64,000 nt of DNA from Escherichia coli. GTDB lineage: Bacteria; Pseudomonadota; Gammaproteobacteria; Enterobacterales; Enterobacteriaceae. Numbering within the stretch: position 1 is the stretch's first letter; each line of letters begins with the position of its first letter. Made by a program: the position numbers. The stretch lies in the NCBI RefSeq assembly GCF_024223415.1, contig NZ_CP100500.1. One strand, 5' to 3'. Below, one piece after another: positions 48,001 to 51,000 of the stretch.

Positions 48001-51000
48001 ACTGAAATGTGAAATGAATGTCGGCGTCTATCTCCCACCAAAAGCCGCGAATGAAAAATTGCCGGTGCTGTACTGGCTTTCAGGCCTGACCTGCAACGAG
48101 CAGAATTTCATTACTAAATCGGGGATGCAGCGTTACGCGGCTGAGCACAACATTATTGTTGTTGCGCCGGACACCAGTCCGCGAGGCAGTCATGTCGCAG
48201 ATGCTGACCGTTACGATCTCGGGCAAGGTGCCGGGTTTTACCTGAACGCGACGCAAGCGCCGTGGAATGAACATTACAAAATGTATGACTATATCCGCAA
48301 CGAACTGCCGGATTTAGTGATGCATCATTTTCCGGCAACGACCAAAAAGTCTATCTCTGGTCATTCTATGGGCGGGCTGGGCGCGCTGGTGCTGGCGTTA
48401 CGTAACCCAGATGAATATGTCAGCGTCTCGGCGTTTTCGCCCATTGTCTCCCCATCGCAAGTACCGTGGGGACAGCAAGCCTTTGCCGCATATCTTGGTG
48501 AAAATAAAGAGGCCTGGTTGGATTACGATCCGGTGAGTCTTATTTCACAAGGTCAACGCGTTGCGGAAATCATGGTTGATCAGGGGTTGAGTGATGATTT
48601 TTACGCAGAACAGCTGCGGACTCCAAATCTTGAAAAGATCTGCCAGGAGATGAATATCAAGACGTTAATCCGTTATCACGAGGGTTACGACCACAGCTAT
48701 TATTTTGTCTCCAGTTTTATTGGCGAGCATATTGCCTACCACGCCAATAAACTGAATATGCGTTGATAATAGTGCACGACTGCCGGATGCGGCGAGAACG
48801 CCTTATCCGCCTACATTTCGCCCGTAAGCCGTAGGCATGATAAGACGCGCATAGCGTCGCATCAGGCATCTGCGCACGACTGCCGGATGCGGCGTGAACA
48901 CCTTATCCGGCCAACATTTCGCCCGTAAACCGTAGGCCTGATAAGACGCGCAAGCGTCGCATCAGGCATCTGCGCTCAACTGCCGGATGCGGCGTAAACG
49001 CCTTATCCGGCCTACATTTCGCCCGTCAACCGTAGGCCTGATAAGACGCGTATAGCGTCGCATCAGGCATCTGAGCACGACTTATCTATGTTTACCACAT
49101 CAAATCATCAGGCACTTTGAAGTCGGCATACGGATCGTCTTCATCCTGCTCTTCGGCACTGAGCGCGCTGTGCAACACAATACTGCTGGCATCACGCTGA
49201 GCAATTTTATCGGCAACGCTGGCGGGAATAATGGCGTATTCACCTTCGCTATTGTTATCGACCAACAAGCGGGCAATCGCCAGACGACCATTAATCAACT
49301 GCGCCTGTGTGAGCTTATCGACAAAAATCTTCTTAATCAGATTGCCGTCAGTGAAGTTAAAACCAATATCGCCATTGGCAATGGTGATTCGGTTCATTTC
49401 AATGAGCTGCTTCACCTGGGCTTTATATTCTTTCGCCAACGCCGCTTGTTTTTGCTGTTCGCTAAGCTGTTTATCACGCTCAAGCTGTGCCTTTTTATTT
49501 TCTTCTACCGCAGCCCGAGCTTCACGCGCCTGAACGCGCGATTTTTTCGCCGTTCTCTCGACCTTCGCCGCTTTTTTGCTGGTGACTAATCCTGCTTTGA
49601 GCAACTGCTCTTGTAAGGTAAGTTTTGCCATCTTTGTTTCCAAACCCGCTGAATAATTTTTAGCGAGTATACCTGTAAACGCCGTGGGTGTATTGGGGGC
49701 AAGTCCCTTTCGCCCCTGCTTAATAAGGCGCGTCAGGCATCGGCACACGGCTGCATTCTTGATCTCCGACTCATCAAAATAAACACCGCCAACCCAGCAA
49801 CAAGAATACCCGGTGCAGAAGCGGCCATTACGCCGACCGTGCCAGTGCCTAATGCCAGCATTTTCCCGGCCAGTAACGGACCGCTCATAGCCCCCAGACG
49901 CCCTACCGCCACGGCTGTTCCCACACCTGTTGCGCGGATCTGCGAACTGTAAAACAACGGTGCCAGGGCATACAAAACGCTTTGCCCACCTGTCGCAAAC
50001 AACCCCGCGACAAATCCCGCCAGCAACATACCGTTAAATGACGACACCGTTCCAAGCGCCAGCAGCGAAGCTAACATGCCGCTATAAATCAGTAGCGACA
50101 TGGTTACTGGACGCAGCTTATCCATCAATGCGCCCAACATTAACGTCCCGCTTGCCGCCCCCATTTGCAGTGCAAACATCACCCCTGCCGCCTGCGATGG
50201 CTGGAATCCTTGCTCCACCAAAAGCAGCGGTAGCCAGTTGATCAACATGTAAACCACCAGCAGAGTGAAGAAATAACACAACCACAGCAGCAGCGTCGCG
50301 GTTGCCGTTTCTGGCGCAAATAACGCACGCAGTGGTGGCGCAGCCTGTTTTTCGCCAGCGAAAACCGCCGACTCCGGCAGCCAGCGCATTAATAGCGGCA
50401 CCAGAATCAACGGCACCACACCACCTACCCAAAACACCGTTTGCCATGCTAAGTTTGCCCCCGCGAAACCCAGTGTCGCCGCCAGCGCCGCGCCAATGGG
50501 AACACCGCAATACATCAGGCTCACTGCCGTCCCACGAAAACGTGGACCCGCGGCTTCAGACGTCAGGGCGATAAGATTCGGCAACGCCGCCCCCAGCCCG
50601 ACACCGGTCATCAGCCGCGCAAAGACCAGTGAGGGGAAATCCCAGGCAATCGCCGTTGCCAGCGAGAACAAACCAAACAGCGCAACTGAGCCAATCAAAA
50701 TGCGCTTGCGACCATAACGGTCCGCCAGCATTCCGCCAACCAACGCGCCGGGTAGCAAACCGAGTATTCCGGCGCTGAATATCCAGCCCATTTGCATTTT
50801 ATCGAGTGCGAAAGCCTGGGCGATGCCACCCGCCGCAATGCCAGCCGCCTGAAGATCCAGCCCTTCCATCAGAGCGACCAAAAAACAAAGCCCGATAGTC
50901 AGCATCAGGCGGGATGAAGATGATGAAGGGGTACGAGTCGACATAAGATGAACCTCGTTGCGAGTGCAGGTGAATCGCGACTGATACATTGCCAGCCGCG

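Follow-up and report, generated by a model that had tools for sequence, protein, structure and literature searches.

The frmB–yaiL intergenic region of an Escherichia coli chromosome (NCBI RefSeq assembly GCF_024223415.1, contig NZ_CP100500.1) is nearly filled by tandem 100-bp units, at positions 48774..49082 of the 64,000-nt stretch of DNA that we analyzed, referred to below as the window. This array, array 1, is a BIME-2 element (bacterial interspersed mosaic element, type 2), a known class of E. coli intergenic repeat composed of repetitive extragenic palindromic (REP) sequences, and it lies between two convergent genes, frmB and yaiL. The best explanation overall, which we consider highly probable, is that of a BIME-2 shaping or protecting the 3' end of the frmRAB mRNA, with unit number varying between strains. 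The element class has been described before, and both loci treated here, array 1 and a second array between mhpT and mhpE (array 2, 51022..51185), are already in the literature. What is specific to this strain is limited to the allele: three units at frmB–yaiL, which is rare, and 1.5 at mhpE–mhpT.

Tandem Repeats Finder (TRF) reported 48774-49082 as a repeat of period 100 with 3.1 copies, 91% matches, 1% indels and a score of 527. This is the strongest tandem repeat of the 64-kb window, the runner-up having a TRF score of 59. A repeat search returned direct-repeat families in array 1 at spacings of 100, 100 and 201 nt. The REP core GCCKGATGCGRCG matches the window 12 times, as against 0.8 expected from 100 dinucleotide-preserving shuffles of the window, none of which (0/100) reached 12. 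Half of these matches (6/12) fall within 48782-49068 with alternating strands, corresponding to two inverted REPs per unit. The RNA of the whole frmB–yaiL intergenic region folds much more stably than shuffled sequence does, with z = -8.1 for the + strand and -6.1 for the - strand. A preliminary description of this DNA had proposed tandem ~100-bp REP/BIME units with inverted REPs on the 3' side of frmB, and the tandem periodicity and the alternating cores bear this out. The start it gave, 48782, is that of the first REP core, and the repeat proper starts at 48774.

Each unit has four parts: a y REP (TGCCGGATGCGGCGTGAACGCCTTATCCGGCCTAC, 34-35 nt), a tail-to-tail linker (ATTTCGCCCGTAAACC, 16 nt), an inverted z2 REP (GTAGGCCTGATAAGACGCGCAAGCGTCGCATCAGGCA, 37-38 nt) and a head-to-head linker (TCTGCGCACGAC, 12 nt). 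The array is laid out as follows:

48774..49082, no strand: BIME-2 array 1, 3.1 copies of the 100-bp unit, delimited by TRF, repeat search and unit alignment
48774-48780: half head-to-head linker GCACGAC, bounding array 1 on the frmB side; a full linker bounds it on the yaiL side
48781..48814, + strand: y REP of unit 1, degenerate, 1-nt deletion in the 3' arm, -14.5 kcal/mol
48815..48830, no strand: tail-to-tail linker ATTTCGCCCGTAAGCC, 16 nt, recurring at 48916-48931 and 49016-49031
48831..48868, - strand: z2 REP of unit 1, degenerate, CATGCC for the canonical CAGGCC, -14.7 kcal/mol
48869..48880, no strand: head-to-head linker TCTGCGCACGAC, 12 nt, recurring at 48969-48980, terminal copy at 49070-49081
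48881..48915, + strand: y REP of unit 2, stem mismatch, tail CAAC for the canonical CTAC, -15.9 kcal/mol
48932..48968, - strand: z2 REP of unit 2, canonical, identical to the z2 of REP325/naRNA4, -21.4 kcal/mol
48981..49015, + strand: y REP of unit 3, canonical, -21.3 kcal/mol
49032..49069, - strand: z2 REP of unit 3, canonical, -21.3 kcal/mol, the final hairpin of the frm-sense RNA
48935-49012 (89.9 bits) and 48834-48912 (71.8 bits), - strand: naRNA4 matches, each spanning y, head-to-head linker and z2 on the yaiL-sense strand

The units are mutually 89-94% identical, and their six REPs form imperfect hairpins of 33-38 nt with energies of -14.5 to -21.4 kcal/mol. The weakened hairpins are the three frmB-proximal copies, y1, z2-1 and y2 (-14.5 to -15.9 kcal/mol, vs. 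-21.3 to -21.4 kcal/mol for the canonical copies).

By definition, a BIME-2 combines y REPs with inversely oriented z2 REPs, is repeated in tandem with short linkers and varies in unit number among strains (PMC3333891). Array 1 has all of these: the order is y(+), z2(-), y(+), z2(-), y(+), z2(-), the 3.1 tandem copies are joined by short linkers of 16 and 12 nt, and unit number differs among strains at both loci. The REPs themselves are also typical, being palindromes of 30-40 nt with an internal mismatch: all nine REPs of the two arrays form 33-38-nt hairpins, and the single-base bulge is kept in seven, including the five canonical ones. Deletions are found in y1 and in one y of array 2 (y-a), whose hairpin folds differently. 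The foot tetranucleotide GTAG/CTAC is present in 8/9 REPs, the exception being the y of unit 2 (CAAC). Both arrays are extragenic, and a search of E. coli genomes gave matches at a median of 30 places in each. Compared with the published class (PMC3333891), both arrays alternate inverse y and z2, have short linkers, are tandem, extragenic and strain-variable, and show no difference in kind. The tail-to-tail linker of array 1 has 16 nt (ATTTCGCCCGTAAACC) and that of array 2 and of REP325 has 17 nt, and BIME-2 linkers are known to vary in length and sequence (PMC3333891). In K-12, the intervals 376560-376746 (186 bp) and 374155-374590 (435 bp) are listed as BIME-2 in Table DS3 of PMC6379681. Their lengths and spacing agree with the K-12 sequence and identify them as the homologues of arrays 1 and 2, respectively.

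An Rfam search gave three matches to naRNA4 (RF02564), at 89.9, 71.8 and 68.6 bits, all above the gathering score of 59.5 bits, and no other Rfam family reached its gathering score anywhere in the window. The RF02564 model was built on the BIME-2 element REP325 (yjdM–yjdN, K-12), which shares with array 1 the 100-bp period, a z2 identical to that of unit 2, a near-identical y and a position in a 3' untranslated region (UTR). The z2 copies of array 1 match the sequence named Z2 in REP325 (PMC4550694), and its stretch of y, linker and z2 scores up to 89.9 bits. The two elements differ in size (5.8 units, 97-100% identical, in REP325, vs. 3.1 units, 89-94% identical, in array 1) and in setting, since REP325 lies between tandem genes and array 1 between convergent ones. 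Both linkers differ as well, and whole units are 80-83% identical. Compared by eye only, the tail-to-tail linker of array 1, or its reverse complement, agrees with the REP325 linker at ~8/16 positions. Experimentally, REP325 is a partial Rho-dependent terminator and a stabilizer, which is the role that we propose for array 1.

The other BIME type, BIME-1 (RIB/RIP), resembles array 1 in having a y REP and a second, inverted REP at the 3' ends of transcription units. It is a single-copy element of y and z1 with a long L linker that carries a site for integration host factor (IHF), whereas array 1 is tandem and has z2 and a 16-nt linker. IHF binding, which the preliminary description had listed among the possible functions, belongs to that long linker and is not supported here: the partner REP is z2, the linkers have 16-17 nt, and the IHF core motif WATCAANNNNTTR is absent from both 48767-49091 and 50945-51218. 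A BIME-1/IHF reading is thus rejected.

Gene order was taken from the list of open reading frames (ORFs) and from the annotation of E. coli NCTC10444, to which the window is 99.97% identical. It runs frmR, frmA, frmB (+), array 1, yaiL (-), mhpT (-), array 2, mhpE (-), with array 1 between convergent genes and array 2 between two genes of the same strand. Beyond array 1 lies yaiL (49092-49631, -), which had been missed in the preliminary description. The genes concerned are:

47933..48766, + strand: frmB/fghA, S-formylglutathione hydrolase, last gene of frmRAB; array 1 is its 3' UTR
49092..49631, - strand: yaiL, DUF2058 protein, convergent with frmB, stop codon 22 nt from the last REP
49733..50944, - strand: mhpT, downstream of array 2
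51219..52232, - strand: mhpE, upstream of array 2

The first REP begins 14-15 nt past the frmB stop codon, and 5288 of the 5426 complete E. coli genomes share the order frmB–array–yaiL.

How, then, does frmRAB transcription end? No intrinsic terminator, that is, no hairpin followed by a U-tract, is present in either intergenic region (the five such sites in the window, with 4.1 expected, are all intragenic), and the array as an intrinsic terminator can be set aside. In K-12 MG1655 grown in lysogeny broth (LB) to an optical density (OD) of 2.0, Term-seq places a frm-sense 3' end at 377325 (- strand) with a mean count of 100650 (PMC7815308). The K-12 frm-sense RNA ends in ...CATCAGGCATCTGCGCAC, 9 nt past the last z2 REP, and by sequence mapping this end, measured in K-12, would correspond to 49078 (+ strand) in the window. 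The suggestion that such arrays stabilize mRNA therefore gains support from the K-12 homologue. On the opposite strand, weaker yaiL-sense 3' ends at K-12 377694/377696 (+ strand) lie ~160 nt inside antisense frmB, and a bicyclomycin-sensitive Rho region is reported at 378012 (+; score 5.8, p = 1.7e-10) (PMC7815308). The window equivalents of K-12 377696 and 378012 are 48605 and ~48289, on the - strand. As both the ends and the Rho region fall inside antisense frmB, yaiL-sense transcription in K-12 crosses the array and is stopped beyond it by Rho, and the read-through antisense RNA overlaps the 3' part of frmB.

Several published observations bear on how the frm-sense end could arise. Rho-dependent 3' ends seen at steady state lie just past stable stem-loops, REPs included, as a result of trimming by PNPase and RNase II (PMC6061677). 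REP325 acts both as a partly Rho-dependent terminator and as a stabilizer of the upstream mRNA, and convergent gene pairs separated by REPs show higher expression (bioRxiv 10.64898/2026.03.23.713779). Just past array 1, the frm-sense RNA has a C/G ratio of 1.57 over the first 80 nt, and this excess of C over G would be compatible with a Rho loading site. In the mechanism that we propose, transcription of frmRAB, lacking an intrinsic terminator, would cross the array, and pausing or Rho would stop it at or beyond the array. Exonucleases acting 3' to 5' would subsequently shorten the RNA as far as the last stable REP hairpin, which would define and protect the 3' end of the frmRAB mRNA. The start of the array may matter as well. 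REPs that lie less than 16 nt from a stop codon reportedly hinder the termination of translation (Liang et al. 2015, as summarized in PMC12306157). The first REP after frmB falls inside this distance, and its position may affect frmB translation termination. Array 1 is thus most likely a 3' UTR structure that would define and protect the end of the frmRAB mRNA and partly insulate the two convergent genes.

Some points weigh against this reading. The 3'-end support comes from the two-unit allele of K-12 in one condition (LB, OD 2.0), not from a three-unit strain. Genome-wide, genes ending in REPs did not have longer mRNA half-lives (Harris et al. preprint), and stabilization by REPs is context dependent and may be small here. 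The Harris 2026 preprint makes no mention of frmB, yaiL or mhpT. Three of the six REPs of array 1 are mutated and form weaker hairpins, most genomes have one unit, and the K-12 array does not stop yaiL-sense transcription.

Array 2 shows the same architecture in the opposite orientation. Because up to 61 nt of it match array 1 with 95% complementarity, it is inverted relative to array 1. The preliminary description was right to place a second, related array between mhpT and mhpE; its extent reaches ~51185 rather than 51180. Its features, together with those of a relic in the neighboring mhpT gene, are:

51022..51185, no strand: BIME-2 array 2, inverted vs. array 1, with three REPs at 51038-51171
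51038-51070, - strand: y REP
51083-51119, + strand: z2 REP
51137-51171, - strand: y REP
51041-51116, + strand: naRNA4 match, 68.6 bits
49710..49754, no strand: relic BIME fragment, comprising a remnant of an array 1-type tail-to-tail linker, an internally deleted z2 and a head-to-head linker

The head-to-head linker of array 2 is that of array 1, and array 2 has its own 17-nt, REP325-like tail-to-tail linker, GGGTGGCGTGAGAATTT. The end of array 2 nearest mhpT bears a tail-to-tail linker of the array 1 type. In the repeat search, the relic is 85-88% identical to the arrays over 26 nt. It encodes the last six codons of mhpT (QPCADA) and the TGA stop, and judged from this overlap mhpT appears to end within an old REP. 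Two further REP sites occur elsewhere in the window: an atypical pair, a truncated y with an inverted z2, between convergent araJ and mak (9822-9903), and a single hybrid REP between convergent rdgC and an SF0329-family gene (11891-11933).

We next consider how unit number varies. Allele frequencies were obtained from 58 records taken at even steps down the ranking of matching genomes, with unit number read from the span of the frmB–yaiL locus:

span ~900 bp, one unit: 32/58 records
span ~1000 bp, two units, K-12 derivatives included: 25/58 records
span 1101 bp, three units: 1/58 records

Among the best 60 matches listed, at least 29 genomes carry the three-unit allele, and no four-unit allele was seen at frmB–yaiL among the genomes examined. 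The allele of the window is therefore the longest and rarest observed. In the sequences of seven strains, allele lengths differ in whole steps of exactly 100 bp and the flanks are conserved; O157:H7 has just one unit, which is the same as unit 1 of a three-unit allele. Every one of the 58 sampled genomes has at least one complete y-z2 unit at frmB–yaiL, and the yaiL-proximal hairpin is intact in all seven strains with sequence across the gap, this strain and K-12 among them. At array 2, most sampled genomes have a single REP, this strain has three, some genomes have five, and nine are present in K-12, where the array occupies positions 14922-15385 of the compared K-12 stretch (51022-51185 in the window). 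The two loci can vary in opposite directions: K-12 has two units at frmB–yaiL and 4.5 (nine REPs) at mhpE–mhpT, as against three and 1.5 in this strain. Arrays 1 and 2 vary independently, and the variation in copy number among strains anticipated in the preliminary description is real, with one, two or three units at array 1.

Unit identity is 89-94% within array 1, 94-99% within array 2, 97-100% within REP325 and 80-92% between loci. Units therefore resemble their neighbors at the same locus more than units elsewhere, as would be expected from local amplification. Unit number would change by slipped-strand or unequal recombination between near-identical units; an alternative route would be cleavage and rejoining by RayT, the REP-associated transposase. 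A tblastn search with K-12 RayT gave no match in the window at E ≤ 1; with no rayT in the window, a REPtron is rejected as a reading of the array. The extra units are probably by-products of local amplification that are not individually selected, because the frmB-proximal hairpins have decayed and most genomes manage with one unit.

The same homology between units would make array 1 a site of larger rearrangements too. F' plasmids of ~230 kb, such as that of TG1 (NZ_CP128219.1), have yafJ joined to yaiL through a 274-bp REP region, without frmB, and from a point within the y REP of the yaiL-proximal unit onward they are identical in sequence to the K-12 chromosome. The F' junction is a product of recombination inside the array 1 homologue. 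The partner REP array of the TG1 F' adjoins yafJ, ~3 kb from rayT (128-625 and 3936-4209 of the compared stretch, L004). F'128 reportedly formed between chromosomal Rep sequences, going by the title of Kofoid et al. 2003 (J Bacteriol 185:660), and the F' junction fits that title. At the other locus, the mhpE–mhpT REP cluster is found in 20% of sequenced junctions of Lac amplifications and is regarded as a hotspot (PMC3161906). The recombination-hotspot role put forward in the preliminary description has direct support at both places. In K-12, the mhpE–mhpT cluster is the locus of array 2 and the F'128 junction that of array 1, with units differing in number (three here vs. two in K-12 at frmB–yaiL, 1.5 vs. 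4.5 at mhpE–mhpT). It is a remote possibility that the inverted arrays flanking yaiL–mhpT allow this 2-kb segment to invert or excise; no inversion of yaiL–mhpT was seen, and frmB, array and yaiL are contiguous in 5288 of 5425 matching genomes.

Of the other explanations that we weighed, the strongest is that the array is neutral or selfish DNA, seeded by RayT or by slippage, unselected at this locus and drifting in copy number. The range of copy number fits this view (1-3 units at frmB–yaiL and from 0.5 to at least 4.5 units at mhpE–mhpT), as do the decaying frmB-proximal REPs, the decayed BIME fragment at the 3' end of mhpT and the ability of RayT to cleave and recombine BIMEs in vitro (PMC3333891). 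However, all 58 sampled genomes that carry the locus (58/58) retain at least one complete y-z2 unit, and the hairpin that all seven sequenced strains keep intact is the yaiL-proximal one, which coincides with the mapped 3' end. The K-12 frm-sense 3' end is, in addition, among the stronger ones in its neighborhood of the dataset. We therefore regard neutrality of the whole array as rather unlikely; for the extra units it is compatible with a role of the array at the frmRAB mRNA end.

A second alternative is that array 1 serves mainly as a gyrase site, removing positive supercoils between convergent frmRAB and yaiL. The convergence of the two transcription units would suit such a role, and the BIME-2 class shows a significant enrichment of gyrase cleavage sites, which fall chiefly in y REPs and do not depend on transcription; the K-12 mhpE–mhpT BIME-2 (435 bp) has three cleavage sites with ciprofloxacin (PMC6379681). 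Yet gyrase cleaves just a subset of BIME-2 elements, and the K-12 homologue of array 1 (376560-376746, 186 bp) has zero cleavage sites in four Topo-seq conditions (PMC6379681), which leaves a gyrase role of array 1 unsupported. Two of the three y REPs of array 1 are also degenerate. Gyrase binding, another function suggested in the preliminary description, thus finds support at mhpE–mhpT and not at yaiL–frmB, and as the main function of array 1 we consider it improbable. We also considered whether unit number (1, 2 or 3) could be a heritable, reversible dial of frmRAB 3'-end stability, frmB translation termination and antisense yaiL read-through. This is a speculative extension with little chance of being correct; if it were true, lineages would differ in formaldehyde detoxification without any promoter or protein change.

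It has also been reported that naRNA4 from REP325 binds HU and condenses DNA (PMC4550694), and array 1 might by analogy encode naRNA4-like RNAs that bind HU and condense the chromosome. The three RF02564 matches (89.9, 71.8 and 68.6 bits) do exceed the gathering score of 59.5 bits. But RF02564 models the generic y, linker and z2 of any BIME-2, and a match therefore indicates family resemblance, not function. A 2026 preprint, whose authors include a senior author of the original work, finds REP325 and naRNAs without measurable nucleoid compaction and REP–REP contacts undetected (bioRxiv 10.64898/2026.03.23.713779). Moreover, the naRNA4 sense of array 1 is the yaiL strand, where downstream 3'-end counts in K-12 are ~1400-1550 vs. 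100650 on the frm strand (PMC7815308), and the naRNA4-sense strand of array 2 is antisense to the mhp genes. We find this reading very improbable. Finally, a CRISPR-like (clustered regularly interspaced short palindromic repeat) or other spacer-bearing system, suggested by palindromic repeats at regular spacing and already dismissed in the preliminary description, is excluded: the 16-nt and 12-nt linkers are identical or nearly so in every unit and, being themselves repeated, cannot be unique spacers. Successive repeats also switch orientation, the annotation of the near-identical genome NCTC10444 has no cas genes within 20 kb, and each genome carries these units at dozens of places (median 30).

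The preliminary description had further supposed that the arrays mark the boundaries of variable DNA in this neighborhood. This was not the case: comparison of the K-12 and NCTC10444 annotations places the strain-specific DNA at tauA–frmR and at mhpR–lacI, and the junctions of these segments have no REP core. The first block, defined against K-12 MG1655, spans ~38468-46261 and carries a response regulator, a MASE1 sensor kinase, a uhpC-like transporter and an ABC transporter; its K-12 counterpart is yaiO-yaiX-IS2-yaiP-yaiS. The second, at ~58600-60400, contains two extra genes, an MBL-fold hydrolase and a GlxA-family regulator. Elsewhere in the window, a full-length IS2 of 1331 bp (29905-31235), 96.1% identical to K-12 IS2A, lies in reverse orientation with a 5-bp target duplication, TTGCC. 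This copy is absent from NCTC10444, where the site is inside the autotransporter adhesin gene ehaB, and ehaB is therefore interrupted in this strain.

Beyond correct annotation, the significance of these results is small. The segments 48774-49082 and 51022-51185 should be annotated as BIME-2/REP, not as CRISPR-like elements, small RNAs or hypothetical ORFs, and genome comparisons should expect 100-bp length polymorphism and ambiguity of assembly or alignment at both sites. Constructs or deletions that remove the frmB–yaiL gap may alter mRNA stability and antisense read-through, because the K-12 mRNA ends just past the last REP. Both loci are sites of past rearrangement, and as such are relevant to structural variants near lac.

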